IMG/VR virus record: IMGVR_UViG_2711768037_000005
Span: 1 to 64,000 of that record
Source: a virus
Taxonomy: Duplodnaviria > Heunggongvirae > Uroviricota > Caudoviricetes
Reading direction: 5' to 3' (one strand)
DNA: 64,000 nucleotides
Shown: positions 6,482 to 44,265 of the stretch, piece after piece
How the letters are laid out: every line of letters begins with the position of its first letter
How positions within the stretch are numbered: position 1 is the stretch's first letter
The notes under the pieces: model-generated
Told to the model about the DNA's origin: nothing
What the model saw: only the letters and a program-made list of their open reading frames with translations
Databases searched by the model: none
Program-made: the position numbers and the translations under genes

Positions 6482-7664
6482 CATGAGCCTTTATGTTATA
6501 TCAACATTTAGGTTGGTCACAATATTGCCTGTTAAAAGTGGAATTATCGTGAGCGAGCTGAAAGAGCTAATTGCCGAATTAGATTTTGAACAATGGTTGG
6601 ATACTGAAGGTATCGTTTATCGACGTGGAGGCGTGAGTGCTCGCGGTCGTGAAGTGAATATCAAGGAGTGTCCGGTATGCGGCAGCTCCAACTGGAAGGT
6701 ATATTTCAATCTGACCAGTGGCGTCGGCAAATGCTTCGCTGGTGATCATCCCGAAGAGATTCAGTTCAATAAGCTGGTCTTCCTCAAGCACTACAGCGGT
6801 AAATCACGACGACAGTTCGAGGAATATGTGCAGAACGCTCTTCTTTCCCAGGGGTGGGCACCAAAGAAAGAAGAGATAGTGCTTGCAAGCACAGTCGAGT
6901 TAGAGGGACCACTTGCACTCCCTCGTCATTACGAACTTCCTATAGATGGCCGTCTTCCAGACTATCTGGTTGAACGAAACATATCGCCTGAAATGGCAAA
7001 GTATTTTGACCTACGATACTGCGTCGAAGGCAAGCACGCTTATGTAGATCCGTATACAGATCAGGTTAAAGGACAGATATTCGATATGCGAATACTGATA
7101 CCGGTTTACGATCTGGATGGGGTAATGAAGACATTTCAGGGACGAGACATTACCGGTACAGCAGAACGCCGCTACCTCTTTCCTATGCAGCTTCCAGCTT
7201 CAGGTAAGTTTCTCTACAACGGCCATAATGCAGTCGGCAAACAGACTGTAGTTGTCTGTGAGGGGGCGTTCGATGTTATGGGGGTTAAACGAGCTATTTT
7301 TTACGAAGAAACATTACGTGATTACGTGGAACCAATAGGAACGTTCGGGATGCATCTATCTGGTAACACCACTCAGGATGCAGAAGATCAGTTAGGCGCG
7401 TTCCTGACGCTCAAGGCGCGTGGGTTACGTAATGTGATCATGATGTGGGATAGTGAAAAGCAAGCTATACGCAACACTATGGCCGCAGCCAGGCGACTGA
7501 CCAGTATCGGTCTTAATGTCAAAGTTGCGTGTTTGGGTGAGGAAGGACTCGACCCGGGCGGTGCAACGCCAGAACAAATTATCAAAGCCTATTATCGGGC
7601 AAAACCGTATACCAAACAGTTGGAGTTGCAAAGCAAGATTTTGGGCATTAAGGCGCTATCGTAA
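6482..7664 (+). CDS. DNA primase (zinc-ribbon plus TOPRIM)
   Basis: CPVCGSSNWKVYFN zinc-binding motif; TOPRIM-like VVVCEGAFDVMGV and MMWDSEKQ; ATG at 6482 has the conserved AAAGAAAAACACATG context (ORF track start 6411). Confidence 0.6.
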
Positions 7665-7739
7665 CAAGCGCCGCCAAAATAAGTAGATGGTTACTTATCT
7701 TTCTGTAAGAATACTTTCATCTGTTAGCTAGGAGTTGGT

Positions 7740-8522
7740 ATGAAAGACGAAATTCAGAAATTAGCCTGCGACATCATTGATAAAACTGGTTTAGAAATCA
7801 GCGAGAGCAATCGGCTAGACATCATTGAAAAAGCCGTCAATACGGCAATGGATCATATCGCCACTCGTTTGGTCGAGATCCCGCTACCGGGGCTACCTTA
7901 TCTGAAGGTTAAGTTGTGCGTATGGGGCGAACCTGCACATGCACGACGTTCTGCATTAGTTGTTTTTGTACGCAAAGAAAACTTACGAACTCTAAAAGTG
8001 CAGGTTGGGGCGTGGTTTGATGGCAGAGTCATCTATACAGATACCATTATCTGTCCTCCAGGTGACGAACATATTGAAGCCGTCATTCGAGAATCAATTC
8101 GAGCTATGCGCAGTTTAGCTTTGCTGGAAGACAAGCAAAACTTTGAAGATTACTTGCTGTCGGTAAAAGCTGAACCAACATTGTCTCTGAAAGCCGATTT
8201 CGTAACTCCGACAAACCTGTTGGATGTTTTGATTAATAAAGGTGCTAGTGATGCCGTAAATGTAATCAGGGAGAGCGAATATTCGACTCTTTGCGACATG
8301 TGCAGAAGTCAGTTGGATCTTGTGCATATCGTTGTTGATGCGGGGAAGGCATGTGATGGAGTAATAGCGGAATTTGCTGGGAAGATGGTCAGGATTGCTA
8401 ACGAATTACCGATGATAGAGCAAGAGGCTAAATCATACGCCACCAATCATGTCACAGAGCTTCTTGCCCCCTATCGCTTAGAAAGCGATCAGCGCAAGAT
8501 GATTAGCTGGGGAAGTTGGTAA
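7740..8522 (+). CDS. hypothetical protein
   Basis: ORF track. Confidence 0.45.
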   Translation: MKDEIQKLACDIIDKTGLEISESNRLDIIEKAVNTAMDHIATRLVEIPLPGLPYLKVKLCVWGEPAHARRSALVVFVRKENLRTLKVQVGAWFDGRVIYTDTIICPPGDEHIEAVIRESIRAMRSLALLEDKQNFEDYLLSVKAEPTLSLKADFVTPTNLLDVLINKGASDAVNVIRESEYSTLCDMCRSQLDLVHIVVDAGKACDGVIAEFAGKMVRIANELPMIEQEAKSYATNHVTELLAPYRLESDQRKMISWGSW

Positions 8523-8589
8523 GCTCTCTGTGTGTCGTTTTTTACGCAAATAATGATAGGTAAGCACAAGATTATTTCTGGCGGTAATT

Positions 8590-9060
8590 GTGAAAGCTGA
8601 TTTGTCAAAAATCCCTTCTATTTCAGGAAATAACGGTTATTCACTTCGTTGTGAGGAAGTAAAGATAAACGGTGAGTCGGCATATTGCAGCTATTCCGTT
8701 TGCCAGCACACCATTCTTGCCTTCAAAGAAAACCGTCTTCCTCGAACTTCTTTCCAGTCGTGCGCAACCGCTATTAAAGCAGGCAAATGCAAGGCGTTAA
8801 AAATGATGGTTGAAGAGATTCGTAAAGGAGAATCTCTGTATTTCGAAGATATGACCGCACTCATTAAGGAGGTTGAAGAACGGAATAAACAAGCCAGAAC
8901 TATAAAACGAAAACGTGACAGTGTAACGATTAATGACATGGTTAAGAAGAGCGCCACATCACAAACAACGATCACTGACGTGTATGCGGCGTTGCTTGAA
9001 GAAACAACAAAAGAAACACATGAGCAAATCGATCAACATATGGAGGCAAAACAACAATGA
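8590..9060 (+). CDS. hypothetical protein
   Basis: ORF track; start uncertain. Confidence 0.35.
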   Translation: MKADLSKIPSISGNNGYSLRCEEVKINGESAYCSYSVCQHTILAFKENRLPRTSFQSCATAIKAGKCKALKMMVEEIRKGESLYFEDMTALIKEVEERNKQARTIKRKRDSVTINDMVKKSATSQTTITDVYAALLEETTKETHEQIDQHMEAKQQ

Positions 9061-11957: not shown

Positions 11958-12029
11958 GATGGTGTAGCTCAGCGGTAGAGCAGTTGGCTGTTAACCAACT
12001 GGTCGGTGGTTCGAATCCACCCACCATCG
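11958..12029 (+). tRNA. tRNA-Asn (anticodon GTT)
   Basis: Acceptor GATGGTG/CACCATC, D-arm TAGCTCAGCGGTAGAGCA, anticodon loop CTGTTAA, T-loop GGTGGTTCGAATCCACC, CCA encoded. Confidence 0.8.
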
Positions 12030-12037
12030 CCAATTTA

Positions 12038-12121
12038 GGGGAGTTAGTCCGTAGAGGTAGCGGTGTAGACTGTAAATCTACTGTCATGGCGACTCGGGTG
12101 GTTCGACTCCATCACTCCCCA
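12038..12121 (+). tRNA. tRNA-Tyr (anticodon GTA), long variable arm
   Basis: Acceptor GGGGAGT/ACTCCCC, anticodon stem-loop GTAGA-CTGTAAA-TCTAC, long variable arm, T-loop TTCGACT, CCA encoded. Confidence 0.75.
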
Positions 12122-12128
12122 CCAAATT

Positions 12129-12201
12129 GCCGGTTTAGCTCAGTTGGTAGAGCGGCTGCCTTGTAAGCAGGATGTCAGCGGTTCGAGTCCGTTAACCGGC
12201 A
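12129..12201 (+). tRNA. tRNA-Thr (anticodon TGT)
   Basis: Acceptor GCCGGTT/AACCGGC, D-arm TAGCTCAGTTGGTAGAGC, anticodon loop CTTGTAA, T-loop GGTTCGAGTCC, CCA encoded. Confidence 0.75.
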
Positions 12202-12695
12202 CCAACATAATATTGAGAACATTGGCGTAACGGGTTCATATCCCAATTTATGAATAAATGTTGCGTTGCCGCGTGACAACCAGTGTTCTCAACATTGTGG
12301 TGAATGCACAGGCTGATGTGCCGCAACTACAGTAGTGCGCGCTTTGCGGGGCTTGCTACAACCCTGTGTCGGAGATCAGCGCCGACCATCACAATTTGGC
12401 TCTCTTGCAACAGCATAACGCTGAAATATGTCCAATCTGGTGCGGCCTGTTCACCCGCCGTTAGCTCCACGAAACGGAGCGCACAACAGGAAAGAGCATT
12501 GAGAACCGCCGACTGCCCTGTTTGAAGCGTAAGTCCGTGCAAACGTCATACAGTGCTCTTTTCGTTGTGGTTGATGCGCAGACTGATGCGCGGAAAGAAA
12601 TGCCCCAGCGACACACGAGGCGAGTTCACACACTGCATTGCAGTCAGTAGCCGGGGTCGCTAAGCCGGAGATCAGTACCGGTAACCACAACAATT

Positions 12696-12779
12696 GGAGA
12701 GTAGGGAGCATGGTGCTCAAGCGGTCTTGAAAGCCGTCCCATTGCGCAAGCGATGATGGTTCGATTCCATTACTCTCCG
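12696..12779 (+). tRNA. tRNA-Ser (anticodon TGA), type II, putative
   Basis: Acceptor GGAGAGT/ACTCTCC, anticodon loop CTTGAAA, long variable arm, T-loop GGTTCGATTCC, CCA encoded; D-arm is atypical so the call is tentative. Confidence 0.55.
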
Positions 12780-13008
12780 CCAGACACAGCGTTGAGCGGT
12801 TTGGCCTTTTAATCAACCAGATTAAGACTCCGCTAACATAAACCAAACCGCTCAACGCTGTGTGTGAAATTCCACATATTTTATACATATCCATTTACGC
12901 AATTTTTTATTGTTCTTTCATACATTACTCTTATATTTTATTGTCGTTTTTTAACTGCTAAAATCGTATCGATTTTAGCTAAAGTTTATCGTTAAAGGAG
13001 TAACGATT

Positions 13009-15130: not shown

Positions 15131-16234
15131 ATGAAAAATAGCTTTGACAGAGCACGCGCAGCAGAAAACACCTCAAAAGAGGCAATTGAGTATCTCGAAA
15201 GAGCATCTCAAATGCAGGCCATTATGATCTCACAGATCAACAATAACATGATATTCTCGGACGCATTCATGTTATTCACTCGCTTATCTCTGCTGATAAC
15301 AAGACGTCGCCCAGAGATCGCTGTTCACTGTATTTTGATACATGTTTTACCGCACATTGCCGATATAAAAGTAAGTGACATTAATCGGTTCATGGTGAAC
15401 CAACTGGTAAACCCGTTAATACTGGATGGCAAAATTGTCATGGGCCGCCGCGTTTTCTCTCTGATGAAGCAGTTCCTTAGCTGGTGCGCCTTCCAGGGGA
15501 TGATAGACGTGTCACCGTTAAACGATATGTCACTAAACAAAGTTGCCGGTGGCGCAAAGCCCACACCTCGCGAGCGTAAGCTGACCGACGCAGAGGTATG
15601 GGTGTTCTGGAATATATGGGACTACTTCAATGTGTGCGCTGGTACAAAATGGGCGGCTAGGCTGTGTCTTGTATCAGCAAGACGACCTGACGAAGTACTG
15701 CGGGCTAAAAAAAGTGAGTTCAATCTTAAGCGTGGGGTTTGGAATCAAGGCAAGAGAAACAAGTCAGCACGTGAGCATTCGCTGCCTTTAAGCACATTAA
15801 TGCGCACATGCATTGAAGAGTTGTTCGAATACGGTAAAGACAGCCAGTGGCTCGTGCCTTCAAATAAAAAAATCGGGAAAGACCTTCCTATGTCTAAAGT
15901 GGCAATAGCACAGGCATTACGTCGTATTCTTGAACGGCCAGAACTGATGGAGCTTGAGCCATTTACACCCCGAGATTTGCGCCGTACTGCGCGTAGTTAC
16001 TTCCCAGCATTAGGCATAAGCCAGGAGGTATCACGCAAAATCATGAACCACAGTCTTGAGGGGATAGATCGGGTCTACGACCGGCACGATTATATGGACG
16101 AGATGCGAGACGCCTTAGAAAGTTTCTCGACGTACATCGCATCAATCGTAGAGCAACCGGATTTAGACGAAATTGACCACAAATTCAAGGGAGATCGTCT
16201 ATCAACAGAGCTTATTCGTGTAAATTTTTCATAG
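15131..16234 (+). CDS. tyrosine site-specific recombinase (integrase or dimer-resolution recombinase)
   Basis: C-terminal catalytic pattern: ARRPDEV (Arg), HSLEG (His), LRRTARS (Arg), YDRHDY (Tyr). Confidence 0.75.
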   Translation: MKNSFDRARAAENTSKEAIEYLERASQMQAIMISQINNNMIFSDAFMLFTRLSLLITRRRPEIAVHCILIHVLPHIADIKVSDINRFMVNQLVNPLILDGKIVMGRRVFSLMKQFLSWCAFQGMIDVSPLNDMSLNKVAGGAKPTPRERKLTDAEVWVFWNIWDYFNVCAGTKWAARLCLVSARRPDEVLRAKKSEFNLKRGVWNQGKRNKSAREHSLPLSTLMRTCIEELFEYGKDSQWLVPSNKKIGKDLPMSKVAIAQALRRILERPELMELEPFTPRDLRRTARSYFPALGISQEVSRKIMNHSLEGIDRVYDRHDYMDEMRDALESFSTYIASIVEQPDLDEIDHKFKGDRLSTELIRVNFS

Positions 16235-16615
16235 AGACTTTATGGCCTCAACAACCTTTTGTGATGCGCCTTTCTCTTTACCGAATCGCTCGTTATATGC
16301 AGCAAGAACCTGTTTTTCGTCCTCGTTAAGAGGAGCGGTGCCTTCTTTGTATAAAAATGCTGCGAGTTCAGGTTGGCGTTCTTCCAGCACCATCATCATA
16401 AGACGACTTGGCTCAATACCCAGCGCCAACGCCAGCGGACGAACCTTATCGATAGGCAAAGGAATTTTGCCACTTTTAATTAAAGAAAGGTTGTTGGCAT
16501 TTTTATAACCAATAAGTCTGGCTATTTGGGCCTGACTCATAGGCGAGGATTCAATCAGCCCTGCGATAAAAGCAGCATAGCGACTTTCTATAAATTCAAT
16601 GTTGTTGTCAGACAT
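16229..16615 (-). CDS. XRE-family helix-turn-helix transcriptional regulator
   Basis: HTH segment SQAQIARLIGYKNANNLSLIKSGK; only sizeable minus-strand gene besides rep; palindrome GGTAAGTGCTTACC about 30 bp upstream of its start. Confidence 0.65.
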   Translation of the reverse strand: MSDNNIEFIESRYAAFIAGLIESSPMSQAQIARLIGYKNANNLSLIKSGKIPLPIDKVRPLALALGIEPSRLMMMVLEERQPELAAFLYKEGTAPLNEDEKQVLAAYNERFGKEKGASQKVVEAIKSL

Positions 16616-17174: not shown

Positions 17175-19283
17175 ATGTCTAAAAAACGATCTATCAAAGA
17201 GATTCAAGACTTCCGTGACAGTGTAAAACGAGTAGTCGCTCTTCTTTCTGGTAAAAACATCCCTGTTGCAGAACGAGGGGACGACGCTTATGTACGCTAT
17301 AACGATGATGGAGAGCCAATTCTCGTAAACATCCCATCAATCCCGGATAACGCAACACCGGCATTGATGAATGCTGTGCGCGGATTTCTCGATCATGAGG
17401 TTGCTCACATTTTGTTTACCGATATTCGTGTGTCCAACAAAATGAGAGAAAAAGGACGCGTTCCTTCCTGGTCGCTATGGAATGCCTTAGAAGACGTGTT
17501 CATCGAGCGAAAAATGGGGCAGGTCTTTAACGGAACAAGACGTAATCTGATGGCAACTCAGCGCCTTATAATCGAAAAAGTCTTTAAACCAAAGGCTTCA
17601 GAGGCTATTGCTTATTGTGGCAAAGATCAGCGCGCGCTTTTTCTAAACTTCTTTCTCTGTCCGGTTGTAAGAGCCTGGGATGGCCAAGCACCGTTCGTTG
17701 ATTTCATGGATGAATACTGGCCTGTCATTGAGAAACCAATTTCATTATTAAAAGAACATGGTATCGATGTGGCCGTGCGTAACATGTCTTGCACCGAGGA
17801 TTGTGTAAAGGTGGCTGCGACCATAGCTAAGATCCTCAAAGACACTGAAAGTGAAAGCAAAGGTAAGGAGTCAGCTCCGGGAAAAACTTCCGATCCTTCA
17901 GACGCTGACCAAACGGATGCCTCTGGAGAAAACAATGAAGACAACGGAGATCATGAGACACCCAAGGCGTTAGATAATCACAAATCTATCAAACCAGAAT
18001 CGAACAGTAACCACAAACATGATAATAACGACAGTGATGATTCAGATAATTCTGAATCATCAGAAACAATATTCGATGATACAGAAAATGATAACGAGGT
18101 ATCAGATTCTGATGCTTCTGATAACGCGGCGTCAGAATCATTAACCGCTGACCACGAAAAAAGAAAAACGACAGAAGACGGCTCTTCAGATATTCCAACT
18201 CCGTCAAAAATGAGTCTGGAAGAGGCTTTAGAGGAGCTGGATAGCATAGAAGATGAAGTCGGAGGCATGACAGAAGATGCTCTATCCGAAACGATTAAAA
18301 GCGAGTTAACAGAAAGCTCGAAAAGCGAATACAGGCCATACAATCGCTCATACGACTTCATCGGCTCGATTGATCAGGCAGAAGCCCATATCAAACGGCT
18401 TATTAAAACATTCTCCGATATTGATTTAGGAGAATATCCAATCAGCCGCTATCGCATCGTTCCTGAAGGCAACCAGCTCTTCGACAAATATATTGAAAAG
18501 CATCTTTCGTCAGGTGTTTCGTCGACGCTGGCAAAAGACCTGGAGCGAGCAATAGCAAGCAGAAACAGAGTTCAGTTTATACCGGGCCAGCGTCGGGGGC
18601 GCATTCATGGTTCTAGTATCTACAGATTAGCAATGAATGATGATCGCGTGTTTCGTAAAAAAGAAGAATCTAAAGCCGTTAACGCCTGTGTTCAACAAGT
18701 GATTGATTTATCAGGTTCAATGAGTGGTATAACGATACAGTTGGCTCTTGCAAGTGCATATACCATCGCCGATGCCCTTGATCGAATAAATGTTCCCAAC
18801 ATTATCACCGGCTTCACTACATTTGGTAGTCATATGGCGGCAGGAGAACTTAAGGCTGTCAAGTATGAGTTCTCTCGCTTTGAATCTTTAATGCTACCTG
18901 TCATCAAAAATTGGAATGAAAAGGTAAATTCTCGCGAAGTTCGCTCACGTATGGGGTGCGTAGGCTACACATTCCCACTTCTTAATAACGTGGATGGTGA
19001 AAGCATAGCCAGCCTTGCATCGTTATTTTCAGGTCGCATGGAGGACAGGAAGATCATGCTTGTTCTGAGTGATGGCGCGCCGTGGGCTGTTGGGAGAGGT
19101 TTTGACGCCCATTTGCGTTCGGTTGCTAAGCAAATTGAAACGCAGACTGACATTGATTTGATGGCAATTGGCATCATGACTGACGCACCGGAGAGATTTT
19201 ACTCAAATCATGCCCTGGTAACGAGCGTTGATAGTCTTGGTTCATCTGTAGTTACTGAACTATCTCGTATCATTTTGAAGTGA
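17175..19283 (+). CDS. vWA-domain protein with acidic low-complexity centre (CobT-like)
   Basis: MIDAS-type DLSGSMSG; long D/E/S-rich linker DNNDSDDSDNSESSE...; paired with the downstream AAA+ ATPase. Confidence 0.6.
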   Translation: MSKKRSIKEIQDFRDSVKRVVALLSGKNIPVAERGDDAYVRYNDDGEPILVNIPSIPDNATPALMNAVRGFLDHEVAHILFTDIRVSNKMREKGRVPSWSLWNALEDVFIERKMGQVFNGTRRNLMATQRLIIEKVFKPKASEAIAYCGKDQRALFLNFFLCPVVRAWDGQAPFVDFMDEYWPVIEKPISLLKEHGIDVAVRNMSCTEDCVKVAATIAKILKDTESESKGKESAPGKTSDPSDADQTDASGENNEDNGDHETPKALDNHKSIKPESNSNHKHDNNDSDDSDNSESSETIFDDTENDNEVSDSDASDNAASESLTADHEKRKTTEDGSSDIPTPSKMSLEEALEELDSIEDEVGGMTEDALSETIKSELTESSKSEYRPYNRSYDFIGSIDQAEAHIKRLIKTFSDIDLGEYPISRYRIVPEGNQLFDKYIEKHLSSGVSSTLAKDLERAIASRNRVQFIPGQRRGRIHGSSIYRLAMNDDRVFRKKEESKAVNACVQQVIDLSGSMSGITIQLALASAYTIADALDRINVPNIITGFTTFGSHMAAGELKAVKYEFSRFESLMLPVIKNWNEKVNSREVRSRMGCVGYTFPLLNNVDGESIASLASLFSGRMEDRKIMLVLSDGAPWAVGRGFDAHLRSVAKQIETQTDIDLMAIGIMTDAPERFYSNHALVTSVDSLGSSVVTELSRIILK

Positions 19284-19378
19284 ATAAAACAGCCTTAACG
19301 ATAAGTAACTACTTACGATAGCTAATGGTATATTTATATAAGAAGTTGAACGCTCATTAGAGAACAAAGGAAAAACGC

Positions 19379-20614
19379 ATGACGACTACTGCACTGCAAA
19401 ATGAAAAAAATCCTTCTGATTACCTTGTTTGCAAGTGGTGCGGCAAATCATTTCACTATTTTAAGTCCCATGTAGCCAATGGTAATTGCGAGGGCATTCC
19501 TGAGTCAGTAAAAGATGCCGATCCTGACACCGTACTGAAAATGTACACAACGCAGTTTCCAGATGAGCCAACGCTATCGAAAAAGGCACTTGATGCAATT
19601 CAAGCTAAACGTGCCGAGCAAAAAAGCGAAATGGCCAAATCTTCTGGCTTGACCAGTAGCCCTGGCTACACAGGCACAGTTGAGTACAAGACAGATCTGG
19701 TCGCAGCTCACGAACTGCTAAACGTAACAGTGGAAGAACTCGGAACAAAACGTGGGACGCCGCTCATGGTTAGCGTCAACGTCAATACGCCGTATCCAGA
19801 GTTCGTTCCAGAAGTGAAGAAGGGCTACGTATATGGCGACTTCGAACTGATCAAAGATATTTTCATGATGCTTGAACTTGGCATACCTGGCTATTTGTGG
19901 GGTCATGCAGGAACAGGCAAATCGTCATTGCCTACACAGCTATGTGCTTTGCTCAATCGTCCGTTGATCCGTGCCCAACATACAGCATCAATGGAAGAGA
20001 CACATGTTACGGGGCAAATTCTGGCGCGTGATGGCTCTACGTATTTCGAGCCTGGCTTGCTTGCGCTCGCAATGAAGCATGGCTGGGTTTACCTCGCGGA
20101 TGAATACGACTTTGCGTTTCCACAGATTCTTGGCGTGTATCAGCCAGTGCTGGAAGGTGAAGCGTTGGTCATCAAAGAGGCGACTCCAGAATGGCGTCGC
20201 ATTACTCCGCATGAACGGTTTGCTTTCATTGGCACTGGCAACACGAACGGATCTGGTGATGAAACCGGCTTGTACCAGGGTACAAACATCCAGAACGCCG
20301 CGAACTTTTCGCGTTTTGGCATCGTTTCGAATGTGAAATACATGAGCAAAGAGGCAGAGATCAACATGTTGATAAATGCCGGTATCGTGGATGAATACGC
20401 AGAAAAGATGGTTAAGTTTGCCGGTATCGTTCGCGATGGATACGAAGAACACCTTATCAGTCAGCCAATTGGCCCTCGTGAACTTTTGTTGTCGGCCAAG
20501 ATTGGAATGATGCGAGGCGACTTTGTGACAGGTATTGAACGTTCTTTCATTAACAAACTCCCTTCAGCTTCTGCACAAGCGGCTCGTGAAGTTGTTCAAA
20601 AAATATTTGGTTGA
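19379..20614 (+). CDS. AAA+ ATPase of MoxR/CobS type
   Basis: Walker A GHAGTGKSS, Walker B VYLADEYDF; N-terminal Cys/His cluster CKWCGKSFHYFKSH; conserved AAAGGAAAAACGCATG start context. Confidence 0.65.
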   Translation: MTTTALQNEKNPSDYLVCKWCGKSFHYFKSHVANGNCEGIPESVKDADPDTVLKMYTTQFPDEPTLSKKALDAIQAKRAEQKSEMAKSSGLTSSPGYTGTVEYKTDLVAAHELLNVTVEELGTKRGTPLMVSVNVNTPYPEFVPEVKKGYVYGDFELIKDIFMMLELGIPGYLWGHAGTGKSSLPTQLCALLNRPLIRAQHTASMEETHVTGQILARDGSTYFEPGLLALAMKHGWVYLADEYDFAFPQILGVYQPVLEGEALVIKEATPEWRRITPHERFAFIGTGNTNGSGDETGLYQGTNIQNAANFSRFGIVSNVKYMSKEAEINMLINAGIVDEYAEKMVKFAGIVRDGYEEHLISQPIGPRELLLSAKIGMMRGDFVTGIERSFINKLPSASAQAAREVVQKIFG

Positions 20615-20794
20615 TCGTGCGTAAAGGATGTTTCGGCTCTCTTATCGCTGCTTCTGAAACTGGTAAGGCTTGTCTGGTGTGTCCAGACAAGCCCGATTGT
20701 CACCAATCAGCAAAAGAAGTTGCGATTTCGATGCATGGGAAGTTCGTAGGCTTCCCCAATGACAAAATCAAAAAAACCAGAAAGGTAAAAACAC

Positions 20795-23700
20795 ATGAAG
20801 GCACTGATGGTTCGAACTGACTTCTCACTTGGGGAGTCGGCTTTAAAAGCAGAAAACGCGGTGAAGATTGCCAGAGAAGCTGGCTACACCGCTGTAATTT
20901 CAGCAGATAGCATGAATATTGCGAGTGTTATTCCACTACAACGTGCCGCTGGTGACGACATGGCGGTTATTTGTGGTGTGAAACTAAACATCGTTGATGA
21001 TCCCACATACGAGCACCGAGCTAAACTTGCTAAAGAATCTAAGAGGTGTATGGAATCATTAGAGCGAGGACGCAACTACTCGTTTACCGCTCTAATTAAA
21101 AATGAGCAAGGATATCGCGACATCTGCGAACTAATGACGGTGGCCAACACACGAGAACAGTTCTACTTTGTACCGCGTCTCTCGCTCGAACAGTTGGTTT
21201 CTACATATGCCAAAGGCAACATCATCCTGCTCACTTCCGACATCGGTAGCGTGTTCCAACGCAACGATTTTGCAAAAATCATAAGCACACTGATTACAGC
21301 GGGTGGAAAAGACAACTTCTATAGTGTGGTTTATCCGCACCCTACCCCATTCTACGACCAGATTAACGTCCGGGCGATGAAAGTTGCCAGCGCACTGAAA
21401 ATAGAGCCAGTAGCGTTTTATCCCGCTTATTACGAATCGATCGACGATGCTGACATTAAAGACATTGCGCACATGGTTACGAACAACATCAAAATCGACC
21501 AGCCGCATCGTCTGCGTATCCCCCACCAGCGAGATAACGCCATCAATGGTCGCCGCCATCTCCTTGAGGCGCTTAAAACCTTCTCCGTTCGCATGGATGT
21601 GCCGGTAACAGCTGCAATGGCCTCAACAACGCAGGATACCATTATCGATGCCTGCACATGGCGCTGGCATGAATTGCCGCCAGCACTGCCAAAGATGGCA
21701 GACGACGAGCCTGCAACGCTGATGAAACTGGCTGTTGCAGGGCTGCGTAAACGTCTTACCACAAAAGAGTTTGGCTACACACCACCTGCTTCTGAGAACA
21801 GGGTTTATGTTGAGCGGCTAAAGTACGAAATGGACACGCTGACTCGCCTGGGATTCTGTGGTTACTTCCTGATGGTGCGCGATCTGATGAATCATAGTCG
21901 TGAAACTGGCATTCCCGTTGGGCCTGGTCGTGGTTCCTCTGCCGGTTCTCTGGTGGCGTGGTGCATAGGCATAACCAACGTCGACCCAATCCGTCACGGT
22001 CTTCTGTTTGAGCGTTTCATCAACCCTGAGCGTCTCGACTTGCCGGATGCGGACTTGGACTTCAGCCAGGCACGTCGCCATGAGGTGATCGAGTATCTGA
22101 ATGAACGCTACGGCGAAGATTACGTTGCAGGCATTCCGAACTTCACCTACCTGGGCGCCGCCTCTGCACTACGTGACACCGCTCGTATTTATGGTGTGGA
22201 GTCCGCAGATATGGCGGTATCAAAAGAACTGAAGAACGTCGAGGATGATAGCCTTCCATTGGAAGAACTGCGCGAACAACTGGCAAGTCTCGACAAATAC
22301 GCAACAAAATATCCTGATGCATTCAATGCAGCCTGCAAGTTACAAAGCCTTATGCGTGGCTTTGGTAGACATGCGGCAGGGATGATCGTAGCAGGTGTTC
22401 CTCTGACAGAACGTACACCGGTTGAGCGCCGTGGTGACGCGCGTTGTATCGCATTTGACAAGCGTTACTGCGAGGCTATGGGCCTAATTAAACTGGACGT
22501 GCTTGGTCTGGCAACTCTCGATTTGCTCGATAGTGCAAAACGCTACATCAAAGAGAGTACCGGGGAAGACATCAATCTTGATGCCATTTCTCTTGAAGAT
22601 CGCAAGGTGCTGGATGGTTTTGCTGCTGGGTACACTCAAGGTGTTTTCCAGCTTGAATCAGGCCCAATGCGCAAGCTGCTTAAAGATTTAGGTGGTGGAA
22701 TTGAGCCAATGAGCTTTAAAACGGTCGTCGCTACAACTGCGCTCTTCCGGCCGGGGCCAATTCAATCAGGCATGTTGGATGACTATGTTTCTGTCGCCAA
22801 AGGCTTTATGACGCCGGAATCATTACACCCCGTTCTTGATGAACTTACCGCGGAAACAAATGGCGTGATTCTCTATCAGGAACAGACGATGAACGCGACT
22901 CGATTGCTTGCCGGCTTCACAATGGCTGAAGCTGACGGTGTGCGTTCCGCAATCGGTAAGAAGAACATGGAAAAAATGAAGAGCATGGGCGAGAAGTTCA
23001 TCGTTCAGGCTCAAGCTGGCTGGATAGACGTTGAGCTGGAAGATGGCACTACACAGCGCATTCACCGTGCGGAACATTTTAAATGCGAAGACGGAACTCT
23101 GAAAACTGTCGAAGAGGCACTTGAGTACGGCGCAAAACTACCTATAAACGCAGTACGCGTTACAGCGTCACATCCAGGGCTATCAGAGATGAAAGCGAAG
23201 GAGATCTGGACCGCATTCGAAAAGAATGGTGCCTACCAGTTCAACAAATCACACTCTGTTGCTTACTCCTTAATCAGTTATCAATCTATGTGGTTGAAAA
23301 CTCATTATCCCGCAGAGTTTTTCGCTGCTGCTCTCACTATTCTTGGCGAAGATAAACACCAGGGGCTGGTTAAAGATGCGCTGACCTATGGTATTCGCGT
23401 ATTACCACCAGACGTTAACATGTCATCTAACCGAATCGAGATCCGCACGCTTGAAGATGGCAGCCAGGTGCTGTATGCGCCCTTCTCTGCTGTGAAAGGT
23501 TGTTCTGAGAATGGCTGCCAGGCCATCATGAGAGCACGAGAAAAAGTTGGCGGCAAATTCGAGTCACTGGCGCAATTCGAAGAAGCTGTCGAGAAACGTG
23601 CCTGTAATAGTCGAGTGCGCGAATCGCTGCAAAAAGTAGGGGCGTTTGCATCCATCGAGCCAGGTAGTCTGCCAGCAACTGATCCAGAGCGCCTACGCGA

Positions 23701-24313
23701 CCAGGCTGAATTGATGGGAAACCTTGTCATAGACGCAGTTAAAGCCTCACGTCCGTTTGAGATGAACCCCAAACGTTCGGCTGAAATTAACGTACTCATG
23801 ACGCGGATGGCGGCTGAAATGGGCTTAGGTGATGAACTAATCCGCCCCAGCATTGGTATTAAGCCGAAAATCATGATCATTCTGGACAATGCGAACGGCA
23901 ATGATACTCGAACCGGTTACTTCATGGAAAACGGATACGACGATTTTAAGGCCAAGCTATTGACGGCTGGAGATTTACGCATGGGCGATCTCTATGTCAC
24001 AGGAGTTTGCAAGAAGGTTAAAGACAAAGAAAAAGACTACACCAAAGACGAGATCGGCCAGTTCACCGACTTTATGCGTGAAGAGATCAATCTGGTGCGT
24101 CCGACCTATGTGCTGACGTGTGGCAGCCGGGCAACTTCATTGTTTAACAACAAAAACAAGCCATCCGATTTGGTCGGCAGGAAGGAGTATCTTCCAGACC
24201 TTGACGTTACTGTCTTTTACGGGTTTAACCCCAACATTCTTTACTTCAGACCTGAAGAGGGAGAACGACTAGAAGCTATATTAGCCGACGTAGCAGAAAC
24301 TATTAAGACGTGA
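20795..24313 (+). CDS. dnaE: DNA polymerase III alpha subunit (DnaE-type, PHP domain)
   Basis: N-terminal PHP-like MVRTDFSLGESALK; palm motif GPGRGSSAGSLVAWCIGITNVDPI; 1172 aa. Confidence 0.85.
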   Translation: MKALMVRTDFSLGESALKAENAVKIAREAGYTAVISADSMNIASVIPLQRAAGDDMAVICGVKLNIVDDPTYEHRAKLAKESKRCMESLERGRNYSFTALIKNEQGYRDICELMTVANTREQFYFVPRLSLEQLVSTYAKGNIILLTSDIGSVFQRNDFAKIISTLITAGGKDNFYSVVYPHPTPFYDQINVRAMKVASALKIEPVAFYPAYYESIDDADIKDIAHMVTNNIKIDQPHRLRIPHQRDNAINGRRHLLEALKTFSVRMDVPVTAAMASTTQDTIIDACTWRWHELPPALPKMADDEPATLMKLAVAGLRKRLTTKEFGYTPPASENRVYVERLKYEMDTLTRLGFCGYFLMVRDLMNHSRETGIPVGPGRGSSAGSLVAWCIGITNVDPIRHGLLFERFINPERLDLPDADLDFSQARRHEVIEYLNERYGEDYVAGIPNFTYLGAASALRDTARIYGVESADMAVSKELKNVEDDSLPLEELREQLASLDKYATKYPDAFNAACKLQSLMRGFGRHAAGMIVAGVPLTERTPVERRGDARCIAFDKRYCEAMGLIKLDVLGLATLDLLDSAKRYIKESTGEDINLDAISLEDRKVLDGFAAGYTQGVFQLESGPMRKLLKDLGGGIEPMSFKTVVATTALFRPGPIQSGMLDDYVSVAKGFMTPESLHPVLDELTAETNGVILYQEQTMNATRLLAGFTMAEADGVRSAIGKKNMEKMKSMGEKFIVQAQAGWIDVELEDGTTQRIHRAEHFKCEDGTLKTVEEALEYGAKLPINAVRVTASHPGLSEMKAKEIWTAFEKNGAYQFNKSHSVAYSLISYQSMWLKTHYPAEFFAAALTILGEDKHQGLVKDALTYGIRVLPPDVNMSSNRIEIRTLEDGSQVLYAPFSAVKGCSENGCQAIMRAREKVGGKFESLAQFEEAVEKRACNSRVRESLQKVGAFASIEPGSLPATDPERLRDQAELMGNLVIDAVKASRPFEMNPKRSAEINVLMTRMAAEMGLGDELIRPSIGIKPKIMIILDNANGNDTRTGYFMENGYDDFKAKLLTAGDLRMGDLYVTGVCKKVKDKEKDYTKDEIGQFTDFMREEINLVRPTYVLTCGSRATSLFNNKNKPSDLVGRKEYLPDLDVTVFYGFNPNILYFRPEEGERLEAILADVAETIKT

Positions 24314-40701: not shown

Positions 40702-43017
40702 ATGATAAGCATCGTAAAACGTAACGGCCAAACAGAGCCGTTATCCGAAGAAAAATACAACCGCGTCGTAATGTATGGCGTAGAAGGCATTCGTGGCGTA
40801 AGCGCATCCGCTGTAGCAATGGGAGCTGCGACCAGCATTTTTGATGGGATGACCACCAGCCAGTTGCATGAGGCTTTGGTTAAATCTGCCGCTGATTTGA
40901 TCTCACCAGAAGCACCAAATTACTCACAGGTGGCTGCCTGCCTGAACATTTTTAAAATCCGCAAAGATGCCTTCGGTCGTTACGACTATCCGAACTTCTA
41001 CCAACACATTGTCAAGAACGTTAACAAGGGCGTTTATGACAAGGATTTGCTGACACATTATTCGTTTGAAGAGATCGAAGAACTCGGCAATTACATTAAG
41101 CCGAAACGTGACGATCTTTTTGGCTATGCAGCTACGGTGCAGTTGCAAAGCAAATACCTCGTTCAAAACCGTGTTACAGGTGAGATTCATGAGGGGCCGC
41201 AACATATCTATATGCTGGTAGGCATGTGTCTGTTCCAGAATTGGGAAGACGACTGCGCTGGCAAAACACGTATGGAGATGGTCAAAGGTTTCTATGACGT
41301 TACAAGTACGTTCAAACTGTCTCTGCCTACACCAATCATGGCCGGCGTCCGTACTCCAACCCGTCAGTTCTCCAGTTGTGTGCTGATTGAGTCTGGCGAT
41401 AGTCTGAAAGGGATTAGTGCAGCTTCAGCCGCAATTATCGACTACGTTTCACGTCGTGCTGGAATTGGTATTGGTTTTGGCCGTATCCGTGCGCTGGGCA
41501 GCGAGATCCGCAATGGTGAAGCCACCCATACCGGAGTTATTCCATTCCTGAAGCATTTCCAGACGGCTGTTAAATCTTGTTCGCAAGGTGGTGTTCGTGG
41601 TGGCGCAGCAACAGCGTTTTACCCGATCTGGCATCTTGAAGTTGAAAGTCTGCTGGTGGTGAAAAATAACCGTGGTATTGATGAAAACCGCGTTCGCCAT
41701 CTTGATTACGGCGTCATGAGTAACCGTCTAATGTACCGTCGACTCGTCAGAAGCGAGAACATCACTCTGTTCAGCCCGCATGATGTGCCTGATATGTACG
41801 AAGCCTTCTTCACAGACCAGGATCTGTTTGAAAAGCTGTACCATAAATACGAAGCCGATGATTCAATTCGCAAGAAGTCAGTACCTGCCATTGAGCTGTT
41901 CTCATCTCTGATGCAGGAACGAGCGTCCACGGGCCGAATTTATATTGCGAACGTCGATCATATTAATGAGCATGGCGCTTTCATTCCTGCTCTTGCACCT
42001 GTCCGCCAGTCAAACCTGTGCATGGAGATCACTCTACCCACTCGTCCACTGGCATTTACCGACGACCCGAACGGTGAGATCGCGCTATGCACTTTATCCG
42101 CTTTTAACCTCGGAGCCATCCGTTCACTGGAGTCTCTTAAAGAGGTGGCGTTCTATGCCGTTGCTGCACTGGATTCGTTACTGGATTATCAAGACTATCC
42201 GATGGAGGCAGCCGAAGTGCCTGCCAAAGCTCGTCGTAGCTTGGGAATTGGTGTAACCAACTTTGCTTATTACCTGGCAAAGAATGGCGTTCGTTATTCT
42301 GATACCGCTGGCAATAAACTGGTGCATGAAACGTTCGAAGCTATCCAGTATTACCTTCTTGACGCCAGCTGCCGACTTGCCGAAGCAAAAGGTGAGTGTG
42401 ACTGGTTTGAGCAGACCAAGTACGCAATTGGTCAGTTGCCGATCGACCATTACCGTTCTTCATTAGACGAAAGTGGCGAAACCAACTTTGAGTTAAAGAT
42501 GCCGTGGGAAGAACTGCGTGAACGTATTGCAAAATACGGCCTTCGCAACTCCACACTGACGGCACAAATGCCATGCGAGACTTCCAGCCAGATCACTAAT
42601 TCCACCAACGGCATCGAACCGCCTCGTGGCCCGGTGTCAGTGAAATCTTCTAAGGACGGCATCGTCAAGATGGTCGTGCCTGAGTTTGAAAAACTGAAGG
42701 AACAGTATGAATACCTGTGGGATATGCCGGACAACCGCGGCTATCTGACAAAGGTGGCGATCATCCAGAAGTTCTTTGACCAGGCTATTTCAGCCAATAC
42801 CAACTATGACCCTTCTCGCTTTGAAGGCGATAAAGTCCCAATGATGACGCTACTGTCAGATTTGCTTCTCGCCTACAAGATGGGAGTTAAAACGCTTTAC
42901 TACCACAACACCAGAGATGGGGCAGGAAAGCGTGATGACGACGAACCGCAGAATCCACTGACGCAAGCTGTAGCCGTCGAGCCAGAAGATGAGTGCGACG
43001 GGGCCTGCAAAATCTGA
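40702..43017 (+). CDS. nrdA: ribonucleotide reductase class Ia alpha subunit
   Basis: Near-colinear with E. coli NrdA by eye (e.g. LVQNRVTGEI, QFSSCVLIE, GGVRGGAATAFYPIWHLEVESLL, C-terminal CxxxxACKI tail); 771 aa. Confidence 0.9.
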   Translation: MISIVKRNGQTEPLSEEKYNRVVMYGVEGIRGVSASAVAMGAATSIFDGMTTSQLHEALVKSAADLISPEAPNYSQVAACLNIFKIRKDAFGRYDYPNFYQHIVKNVNKGVYDKDLLTHYSFEEIEELGNYIKPKRDDLFGYAATVQLQSKYLVQNRVTGEIHEGPQHIYMLVGMCLFQNWEDDCAGKTRMEMVKGFYDVTSTFKLSLPTPIMAGVRTPTRQFSSCVLIESGDSLKGISAASAAIIDYVSRRAGIGIGFGRIRALGSEIRNGEATHTGVIPFLKHFQTAVKSCSQGGVRGGAATAFYPIWHLEVESLLVVKNNRGIDENRVRHLDYGVMSNRLMYRRLVRSENITLFSPHDVPDMYEAFFTDQDLFEKLYHKYEADDSIRKKSVPAIELFSSLMQERASTGRIYIANVDHINEHGAFIPALAPVRQSNLCMEITLPTRPLAFTDDPNGEIALCTLSAFNLGAIRSLESLKEVAFYAVAALDSLLDYQDYPMEAAEVPAKARRSLGIGVTNFAYYLAKNGVRYSDTAGNKLVHETFEAIQYYLLDASCRLAEAKGECDWFEQTKYAIGQLPIDHYRSSLDESGETNFELKMPWEELRERIAKYGLRNSTLTAQMPCETSSQITNSTNGIEPPRGPVSVKSSKDGIVKMVVPEFEKLKEQYEYLWDMPDNRGYLTKVAIIQKFFDQAISANTNYDPSRFEGDKVPMMTLLSDLLLAYKMGVKTLYYHNTRDGAGKRDDDEPQNPLTQAVAVEPEDECDGACKI

Positions 43018-43122
43018 CATATGGTGGGGTATAACCCCACCTTCTCTTTGATTTGTAAGCCTTGTTTAAACAAATAAGATAACAACTTGTTTAAACACAT
43101 CAAAAAGCAAAAGGAAAAACAC

Positions 43123-44265
43123 ATGTCATATTCAACGTTCCGTTTGGGTGCTAATGATGCAACCAAAGAGCCTATGTTCCTCGGACAATCTGTCAACGTG
43201 GCACGTTACGATCAGCAAAAATACCGTGATTTTGAAAAGTTGATTGAACGTCAATTGTCTTTCTTCTGGCGGCCGGAAGAAGTTGATATTTCGAGCGATC
43301 GTATCGACTTCAACACGAAGCTGCGGGACCACGAACGTCACATTTTTCTGAGCAATCTCCGTTATCAAACGTTACTCGATTCAGTTCAGGGACGTAGCCC
43401 AAATGCAACGCTGCTGCCGCTTATCTCTATTCCTGAACTGGAAACGTGGGTTGAAACATGGTCTTTCTCTGAGACTATCCATAGCCGCAGCTACACCCAC
43501 ATTATTCGTGGCATGGTGGACGATCCGAGCATTGTTTTTGACGGTATTGTTACGGATGAAGAAATCATCAACCGAGCGATCAGTATCTCTGCTGAATATG
43601 ACAGGCTTTATGGGATGACCTGCGAGCGCCAGTCGTTAGGTGAGAAAGAGTTTGAACGTCTGTACGTAAATGAATATGGCTGGGAGCCATATCCTTTGCA
43701 CCGTCAGCTTTTCCGCACGTTGGTGTCCATTAATGCGCTTGAGGCGATCCGTTTCTATGTAAGTTTTGCATGTACGTTTGCCTTTGGCGAACGGAAGTTG
43801 CTTGAGGGTAACACCAAAATTATGCGCTTTATTGCCCGTGATGAAGCTCTGCATTGCGAAGGAACTGAACGCATGATCCGCTTCATGCGTACCGGTCGCG
43901 AAGGTTTATTGTGGAAAGAGATTGCTGCTGATGAAGAAAACGTCATTTACGACACCATGAAATCAGTCGCCGAACAAGAAATGAACTGGGCAGACTATCT
44001 CTTCAAAGACGGTTCGATGATTGGTTTAAACGCGGATATTCTCAAAACCTATGTAAAATACCGCACCAATCTGGCTATGAATCGTCTTGGCCTGAAGGCT
44101 TTATTTCCAGAAGTTACCACTGATCCGCTGGTCTGGATGAACAAGTGGTTGTTAACCGACACACTGCAAATTGCACCACAAGAGGCAGAGCAAAGCACAT
44201 ATCTGGTAGGTCAGATCGATTCTACCGTGGATAAGGCTTCTCTAAGCCAGTTTGCAGACCTGTAA
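43123..44265 (+). CDS. nrdB: ribonucleotide reductase class Ia beta subunit
   Basis: Very close to E. coli NrdB ([38 protein letters not shown]); start at MSYSTF with AAAGGAAAAACACATG context, not the ORF-track 43087. Confidence 0.9.

Follow-up and report, generated by a model that had tools for sequence, protein, structure and literature searches.

What does a pair of genes related to those for the cobaltochelatase subunits CobT and CobS do in an element of Escherichia coli, a host that to our knowledge has no de novo corrin pathway and no CobN on its chromosome? The question is raised by a 64,000-nucleotide stretch of DNA, positions 1 to 64,000 of the IMG/VR virus record IMGVR_UViG_2711768037_000005 and hereafter called the window, which carries the two genes side by side at 17175-20614. 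From its DNA identity to the E. coli plasmid pOkiPb01698_2 (99.9%), to the Escherichia phages CMS-2020a, PhiR41_1 and Cyrano (96.7–98.2%), and to Salmonella phage SSU5 (~75%), we judge the window to belong to an SSU5-like E. coli phage-plasmid. Among 5,426 complete E. coli genomes, 251 contain matching DNA, plasmid-borne in every case. We see hardly any room for doubt about the identity and architecture of the pair as CobT and CobS relatives. The explanation that we consider the best overall, and to which we give an even chance of being right, is that they form a two-component AAA+ machine, a homologue of the CobS-CobT motor that would do a different job. Gene pairs of this kind are already known and widely annotated in phages; what is added here is a zincin motif in the N-terminal domain of the CobT-like protein, a C2H2-like finger on the ATPase, and the linkage of cobT and cobS to dnaE.

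The two genes are as follows.

17175..19283, + strand: cobT-like gene, 702 amino acids, ATG start (open reading frame; Pfam and PHROG matches and RefSeq name)
19379..20614, + strand: cobS-like gene, 411 amino acids, ATG start (open reading frame; matches to AAA_5, PHROG 249 and Brucella CobS)

The 702-residue protein matches the Pfam families CobT_C, the VWA domain of CobT (2.6e-82), and CobT (1.8e-26), as well as PHROG 1576 (2.4e-300), and its RefSeq name is 'cobaltochelatase CobT-related protein'. The 411-residue protein, which RefSeq names 'AAA family ATPase', matches AAA_5 (2e-15), PHROG 249 (4.6e-106) and Brucella CobS 9ujv (E 1.8e-25). CobT, the CobT_C VWA domain and AAA_5 are the families that had been named in a preliminary description of the locus, which called for the hidden Markov model searches reported here. 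The CobT-like protein is laid out as an N-terminal domain, an acidic linker of 147 residues, a shaft-like segment, and a VWA domain with a MIDAS (metal-ion-dependent adhesion site).

17175..17849, + strand: N-terminal domain, residues 1-225, with a predicted zincin-like metallopeptidase fold (AlphaFold model and motifs)
17850..18290, + strand: acidic, Ser/Thr-rich low-complexity linker, residues 226-372 (31% Asp plus Glu, 24% Ser plus Thr, 17% hydrophobic)
18561..18680, + strand: shaft-like segment, residues ~463-502 (residue-by-residue alignment to Brucella CobT 9uka_G)
18690..19280, + strand: VWA domain with MIDAS residues D511, S513, S515, N605 and D633 (alignment to Brucella CobT)

The VWA region aligns with residues 347–616 of Brucella CobT (E 7.6e-17 with the single sequence, 1e-63 with a profile), and its five MIDAS residues fall on D422, S424, S426, N518 and D546 of the Brucella protein; D511, S513, S515 and D633 are invariant in alignment A1. 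The motif DLSGSMSG (residues 511–518, nucleotides 18705–18728), which the preliminary description had picked out as a MIDAS, therefore coincides with that of CobT, and the D/E/S-rich, CobT-like centre that it had also noted is the low-complexity linker listed above. The length of this linker varies across the family, the distance from the HExxH motif of the N-terminal domain (see below) to the MIDAS ranging from 293 to 524 residues, and a 60-residue stretch of at least 30% Asp plus Glu is present in 84% of 119 full-length relatives. An acidic linker is common to the 702-residue protein and to genuine CobT, and the one in Brucella CobT, of ~90 residues, is disordered (10.64898/2026.07.21.739949).

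It has been seen by cryo-electron microscopy that the hexameric ring of Brucella CobS grips a shaft of CobT (Q373–R413), which enters the pore of the ring (10.64898/2026.07.21.739949). Residues ~463–502 of the window protein align with this shaft, and the consensus is conserved in alignment A1; by analogy, the segment would act as a shaft here also. The adjacent gene thus supplies the ATPase with a VWA partner that has a complete MIDAS, as in MoxR-class systems, and NorD, the VWA partner in one of these, gives a weak match to the VWA profile.

For the ATPase itself, the following elements can be placed by alignment to Brucella CobS.

19901..19924, + strand: Walker A, G175-S182 (G175-x2-G-x-GKS), aligned to Brucella CobS G71-S78; invariant in alignment A6
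20099..20104, + strand: Walker B, D241-E242, aligned to Brucella CobS D141-E142; invariant in alignment A6
19379..19801, + strand: N-terminal extension, residues 1-141; Brucella CobS aligns from residue 142 only
19424..19477, + strand: predicted C2H2-like beta-beta-alpha finger, residues 16-33 (conservation and model)

N288, R312 and R367 were assigned, as sensor 1, arginine finger and sensor 2 respectively, by offset mapping to Brucella CobS residues, and all three, together with Walker A and Walker B, are invariant in 40 homologues, mostly 37–46% identical. The AlphaFold2 model of the ATPase has a predicted local distance difference test score (pLDDT) of 86.9, and its best Foldseek matches are NorQ and CbbQ (E ~1e-14, template modelling score 0.84–0.87). 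An AAA_5-type core with all of the ATPase motifs is thus present, as the preliminary description had proposed in calling the protein a MoxR/CobS-type AAA+ ATPase with Walker A and B motifs, and the conservation of these residues shows a MoxR-class enzyme with the full predicted catalytic set.

The Cys/His cluster noticed earlier at the N-terminus of the ATPase is also real, and consists of C18-x2-C21-x4-H26-x4-H31. Among the 40 sequences C18, H26, Y56, P61, S67 and H111 are invariant, H31 is more than 90% conserved, and position 21 is either C or D; in the model, strands 16–17 and 24–25 and helix 28–33 form a C2H2-like unit (pLDDT 81–95), which is followed in the 141-residue extension by two helices and the Y56/P61/S67 motif. 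No Pfam family matches this extension. Genuine CobS differs in that it begins ~38 residues ahead of the AAA+ core, and the window ATPase lacks the last ~13 residues of CobS. The CobS proteins of phages ICP2 and S-RIM8 have other extensions without a C2H2-like finger. Judged from the model and its conservation, the finger is a lineage-specific, conserved, C2H2-like element; it sets the SSU5-like supergroup apart from other viral cobST clusters, as does the fixed place of the pair directly upstream of a family C polymerase.

Is the pair a cobaltochelatase? It shares with CobNST (Brucella melitensis 9ujv/9uka; the Pseudomonas and Rhodobacter enzymes) the AAA+ motifs, the CobT layout and the adjacency of the genes. 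A viral cobST two-gene cluster has been described and proposed to hijack host CobN (PMC8651126), and the window pair belongs to this class, PHROG 249 and PHROG 1576 being encoded by adjacent genes in a phage. The same pair and domain layout are found in the viral clusters of T4-like cyanophages (CobS plus a 'peptidase'), of the Cobavirinae, which are named after the cobST cluster, of haloarchaeal tailed viruses and of ICP2; these clusters, like the window pair, adjoin replication genes, and HExxH is present in S-RIM8 and ICP2. Overall, a CobS homologue occurs in 494 of 50,697 phage records (~1%), mainly in T4-like cyanophages. If such pairs were auxiliary metabolic modules, the viral CobS and CobT would act with host CobN, or with the H subunit of Mg-chelatase, to raise cobalamin, for example for a class II ribonucleotide reductase. 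This has been published as a proposal for viral cobST (PMC8651126), it agrees with the true homology of both proteins to CobS and CobT and with the intact ATPase, shaft-like segment and MIDAS, and it is echoed by names given in databases, for example 'porphyrin biosynthesis protein'.

The scores and the gene content tell against it. With the NCBIfam CobT equivalog model TIGR01651 the window protein reaches 68.8 bits against a cut-off of 759.05, and with the CobS equivalog TIGR01650 the ATPase reaches 85.0 bits against 558.55, whereas the genuine pair of a Cereibacter plasmid, used as a control, passes (CobS 597.9 bits, CobT 808.2 bits); the RefSeq names 'CobT-related protein' and 'AAA family ATPase' accord with these scores. 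None of the only five open reading frames of at least 600 residues in the window (DUF6645, CobT-like, DnaE, AAA ATPase and NrdA) is CobN-like, no cob gene is listed in the complete pOkiPb01698_2, and this plasmid encodes a B12-independent class Ia nrdAB and no class II ribonucleotide reductase. Unlike CobNST, therefore, the window pair is without CobN, and it is in the order cobT-cobS rather than cobS-cobT. CobN lies between two CobT domains in Brucella CobNST (10.64898/2026.07.21.739949), and the CobT_N surface that faces CobN in the holoenzyme has just ~16% identity here. To make B12 in E. coli took ~30 heterologous genes, including cobN, cobS and cobT (10.1101/394338). The same pair is also present in the Vibrio cholerae phage ICP2, and a further difference of the SSU5-like supergroup from other viral cobST clusters is that its hosts are not known to have any CobN.

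We are thus fairly confident that the pair is not a cobalt chelatase in this host. By their scores, its members are paralogue-like relatives and not cobaltochelatase subunits, and because CobN and the corrin pathway are missing the published hijack of host CobN does not apply; a cobalamin-raising module of any kind is highly improbable here. The preliminary description regarded the role of such pairs in phages as unresolved, in agreement with the literature that we found, in which cobST is described but no functional experiment on any viral cobST pair, and no functional study linking SSU5, pHCM2, pMT1 or phage-plasmids to cobT/cobS, came to light.

Annotations of these genes are further confused by nomenclature. 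In Escherichia phage Cyrano (OV696614.1; 9179–12618 of the stretch examined) they are annotated as 'dimethylbenzimidazole phosphoribosyltransferase' and 'cobalamin synthetase', which is a name clash between the Pseudomonas-type CobT and CobS chelatase subunits and the unrelated Salmonella-type enzymes; a note in the ICP2 record contains the same mix-up.

What might such a pair do, if it is not a chelatase? The N-terminal domain of the CobT-like protein contains two motifs that bear on this.

17394..17408, + strand: HExxH motif (H74-E75-V-A-H78), invariant in 23 diverse sequences
17481..17507, + strand: NALEDVFIE motif (N103, E106, D107, E111), with the candidate third zinc ligand; invariant in alignment A4

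The second motif begins 25 residues after HEVAH, and D73, H74, E75, H78, N103, E106, D107 and E111 are all invariant among the 23 diverse sequences, which, four close relatives excepted, have only 19–36% identity to the window protein. Of 27 CobT-like proteins of mobile elements, from a Salmonella island, phage-plasmid-like contigs and phages, 25 keep the motif. So do 136 of 141 distant sequences that each represent a 50%-identity cluster, and HExxGH stands in its place in four more; a profile of the CobT-like N-domain retrieves 6,855 protein clusters. It is carried by the CobT-like protein of cyanophage S-RIM8, whose gene is annotated 'peptidase', and the ICP2 protein keeps HExxH with a variant of the second motif. 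Unlike the window protein, the two genuine CobT proteins that were aligned have SMALR (Brucella) and AFALR (Cereibacter) in place of HEVAH, with both glutamates kept. On this distribution, the chelatase can dispense with the zincin motif, which is strongly constrained among the mobile-element proteins.

Only two of the mobile-element proteins examined, those of Pseudomonas phage nickie (SEISK; 6974–9058 of the stretch examined) and Stenotrophomonas phage BUCTxx99 (REVST; 6992–8977 of the stretch examined), are without both histidines. These two phages also have no upstream helix-turn-helix (HTH) gene and no integrase within the stretch examined.

The AlphaFold model of the N-domain (pLDDT 89.9) consists of a helix, a three-stranded sheet and then further helices, with HExxH on helix 62–81 and the glutamate motif on helix 98–117, and so predicts a zincin fold with HExxH on the active-site helix. 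E106 and E111, the candidates for the third metal ligand, are both invariant and both on helix 98–117. At the level of sequence the domain is remote from characterized proteins: a profile search aligns Brucella CobT_N at just 18 bits, a single-sequence search against PDB sequences gives only spurious matches to HLA and SOD, and there is no match to a Pfam peptidase family or to the M78/ImmA families. The N-domain of Brucella CobT has an M48C-peptidase-like fold and docks on the small subdomain of CobS (10.64898/2026.07.21.739949). M48-type and minigluzincin zinc metallopeptidases (Ste24/ZMPSTE24, projannalysin, BepA and BlaR1) are among the closest known systems, from which the window domain differs in being soluble and fused to a VWA domain via an acidic linker, and in the loss of the motif in a few members. 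The N-domain may bind a metal and act as a peptidase, for both of which it is a candidate.

The genomic setting of the pair gives an indication of what it may act upon. The genes on either side of it are as follows.

16229..16615, − strand: XRE-type HTH regulator, divergent, upstream of cobT (PHROG 8, 8e-12; weak Pfam HTH_19 match)
20795..24313, + strand: dnaE, DNA polymerase III alpha subunit with PHP domain (Pfam PHP, DNA_pol3_alpha, finger and HHH_6)

The cobT-like and cobS-like genes are separated by a gap of 95 nucleotides, each of cobT, cobS and dnaE has a good ribosome-binding site, and no intrinsic terminator is predicted between them on the + strand. A promoter scan gave sites no more numerous than in shuffled controls, and none on the + strand upstream of cobT. 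Upstream of the pair the replication block includes genes for helicase, primase and ligase, with tRNA genes, the DUF6645 gene, an integrase and the divergent HTH gene in between; downstream are dnaE, uvsY-like, gp32-like, exonuclease and recA genes. The pair had been placed at the head of the replication block in the preliminary description, which proves mistaken: because helicase, primase and ligase are upstream, and dnaE and the rest downstream, it lies inside the block, directly upstream of dnaE.

We compared 28 loci, 25 of them in alpha-, beta- and gammaproteobacterial genomes and the others in phages nickie, RHph_X66 and BUCTxx99. A search of viral contigs yielded only near-identical SSU5-like loci, and the diversity was drawn from annotated phage and genome collections; a genome scan with a narrower alignment, A5, recovered the mobile-element clade only and no genuine CobS, the genuine pair being taken from the Cereibacter plasmid. 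In all 28 loci the order is cobT-cobS-dnaE, with 0.1–1.8 kb before dnaE, and a uvsY-like or gp32-like gene comes next in 20 of them; of the 25 genome loci, 14 have a homologue of the HTH gene upstream of cobT. Protein identity across the loci is 25–45%, except for four close enterobacterial ones, and since all of the catalytic residues are conserved at that level, the idea that the pair is a pure hitch-hiker can be excluded.

Beyond this group, the pair lies beside primase, helicase and Pol A genes in ICP2, beside the sliding clamp and clamp loader in S-RIM8, and beside DNA polymerase and primase/helicase in a Cobavirinae phage. In a genomic island of Salmonella Typhimurium (AB571791.1; 804–8797 of the stretch examined), ssb, bet, a DUF3150 gene and one for a YqaJ exonuclease lie between the genes of a CobS-like ATPase and of a CobT-like VWA protein with HExxH intact; this is a non-phage element with the same pairing and no polymerase. 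The pair is accordingly embedded in replication/recombination modules of unrelated elements with other polymerases.

Many of the genome loci are on contigs of 96–120 kb, one being a Yersinia pestis contig of the size of pMT1. The cobT-cobS-dnaE-uvsY-gp32 module on contigs of ~96–120 kb is present in Roseospira, Magnetospirillum, Faunimonas, Ancylobacter, Phyllobacterium, Massilia, Sphingomonas and others, so that SSU5-like phage-plasmids, or close phage relatives of them, may reach far beyond the Enterobacteria. Gene order varies outside the supergroup: cobT-cobS is found in the SSU5-like supergroup, ICP2 and S-RIM8, and cobS-cobT in the Cobavirinae and Roseobacter phage CRP-810, and the Cereibacter azotoformans plasmid pORIO5 (6098–9693 of the stretch examined) has the genuine order cobS-cobT with two small open reading frames between the genes. 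An apparent loss of cobT and cobS in Xanthomonas phage JGB6 (OQ436456.1; 6855–9940 of the stretch examined) was rejected, the record being frameshifted and the genes present but split; the record calls their fragments 'PHP domain-containing protein' and 'DNA polymerase III subunit alpha'.

How could the two proteins work together? If they behave as Brucella CobST does, six CobS-like subunits would assemble into a ring around the CobT-like shaft and grip it. Hydrolysis of ATP would then move two domains that the flexible acidic linker tethers, the VWA/MIDAS one and the peptidase-like one, against a client protein. From the constant placement of the pair inside replication/recombination modules, the client would seem to be a part or a regulator of phage lytic DNA replication, and the intact HExxH site suggests that the adaptor may also be able to cut it. 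Expression would probably be together with dnaE, after release of the adjacent repressor. The client would not be a chelatase subunit, because E. coli has neither CobN nor the corrin pathway. DnaE was considered as the specific client, an idea that loses force because phages with polymerases of families A and B have the pair too. That the pair is a replication-linked remodeller or protease we put forward with somewhat more doubt than conviction. A further step, which we think unlikely to be correct, is that it forms an ATP-driven two-component metalloprotease/unfoldase, in which an AAA+ ring and a VWA adaptor with a live zincin site process a replication or induction protein, and from which the cobaltochelatase CobST would be a derived form that lost the protease site on its recruitment to CobN.

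The same domains might instead serve to insert a metal without proteolysis, as NorQ-NorD does in delivering iron to nitric oxide reductase and as is the case for CbbQ-CbbO. There, too, a ring engages a VWA/MIDAS partner; NorQ and CbbQ are the closest structural matches of the ATPase, and NorD matches the VWA profile. The candidate clients would be the PHP domain of DnaE, NrdB and a metallophosphoesterase, and a PHP-bearing dnaE is the invariant neighbour in the SSU5-like supergroup; HExxH could bind or pass on a metal rather than catalyse, and its loss is tolerated in two phages. However, DnaE is not a universal client, since the pair also accompanies polymerases of family A or family B and is present in the polymerase-free island. 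Hydrolysis is indicated by the glutamate of HExxH, which is a catalytic base rather than a ligand and which almost every member has kept. The clients of NorQ-NorD and CbbQ-CbbO are respiratory or carbon-fixation enzymes, which are absent here, and we know of no zincin domain in NorD or CbbO. We therefore rate a metal-insertion chaperone as a rather weak candidate.

Since an XRE-type regulator is encoded next to cobT, the zincin might also be a protease of the lysis-lysogeny switch that cleaves this repressor in the manner of ImmA, IrrE and CapP, with the AAA+ ring as its unfoldase, and so locks in lytic replication. There is no sequence match to M78/ImmA, however, and the structural likeness is generic to zincins; the motif is also kept in cyanophages and in ICP2, which are believed to be strictly lytic, and the correlation of motif and repressor reflects perhaps one loss event. 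The genes are, moreover, downstream of the repressed promoter, and their products could thus reinforce the switch only and not start it. We regard this role as improbable.

A similarly low probability attaches to a device for host takeover or counter-defence, which would act on a protein of the host, for instance a replisome component or a defence factor, by remodelling or degrading it. The position of the pair fits that of early genes, the variation of the acidic linker and the differences between lineages in the N-terminal extension of the ATPase agree with adaptation to diverse targets, and MoxR-VWA modules are common in conflict systems; but the N-terminal and the C-terminal domain are conserved across alpha- to gammaproteobacterial and cyanobacterial hosts, which fits a conserved target better. 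The PADLOC defence models gave no significant match, the 702-residue protein having only a marginal one to DrmE (E 0.001) over the low-complexity region and the ATPase none, and a defence-system reading was rejected for want of such matches.

A natural variant of the locus is found in the E. coli plasmid NZ_CP029421.1 (3287–6034 of the stretch examined), where cobT contains an IS3-type insertion and ~600 bp of the part coding for the VWA domain are missing, with cobS and dnaE intact; this plasmid, which persists, thus carries a knock-out of cobT that arose in nature. One further small open reading frame lies between cobS and dnaE.

20611..20820, + strand: small Cys-rich open reading frame, 69 amino acids, TTG start (PHROG 6337, 2e-45), filling the cobS-dnaE gap

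It overlaps the stop codon of cobS and the start of dnaE, RefSeq has no annotation for it, and an equivalent is present at the same place after cobS in Kluyvera, Yersinia, Buttiauxella and Photobacterium loci. We mention it as context only; at most it is a candidate part of the CobT/CobS-like machine.

Other features of the element can be noted briefly. Four tRNA genes (Asn-GTT, Tyr-GTA, Thr-TGT and Ser-TGA) lie at 11958–12782 of the window on the + strand, between the ligase region and the DUF6645 gene. In pOkiPb01698_2, a phage-type dihydrofolate reductase gene (12236–12712 of the stretch examined), which should correspond to ~46.9–47.4 kb of the window, adjoins the genes for thymidylate synthase and nrdAB; its RefSeq name is 'trimethoprim-resistant DfrA51', and a nucleotide-metabolism gene of a phage-plasmid is thereby tallied as a resistance gene. 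Outside the region covered by the window the same plasmid carries metG (methionine-tRNA ligase) and apbC (an Fe-S carrier), at 40709–44000 of the stretch examined, which have the look of housekeeping genes captured from a host.

Surveys of viromes regularly enter homologues of CobS and CobT as 'auxiliary metabolic genes' for vitamin B12. An E. coli phage-plasmid without CobN or the pathway is therefore a clean and genetically tractable system in which to address the function of these proteins. One SSU5-like phage that grows on the K-12 strain of this host is PhiR41_1 (PV340561), for which MG1655 is the host listed. The pair as such will not surprise a specialist, but a CobN-free and tractable host, an intact protease motif and linkage to dnaE together make its function directly testable. 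Genes that govern the lytic replication of such elements also have practical interest. Should the zincin site prove active, with a replication or induction factor as the client, an annotation in wide use would have to be corrected, a new kind of AAA+-coupled protease would have been recognized, and it would become clearer how the chelatase motor arose. Were the pair indeed a two-component metalloprotease/unfoldase, the long-standing 'peptidase' label would be correct for the cyanophage CobT, and hundreds of phage genomes would be wrongly labelled as carrying a 'B12 auxiliary metabolic gene'.

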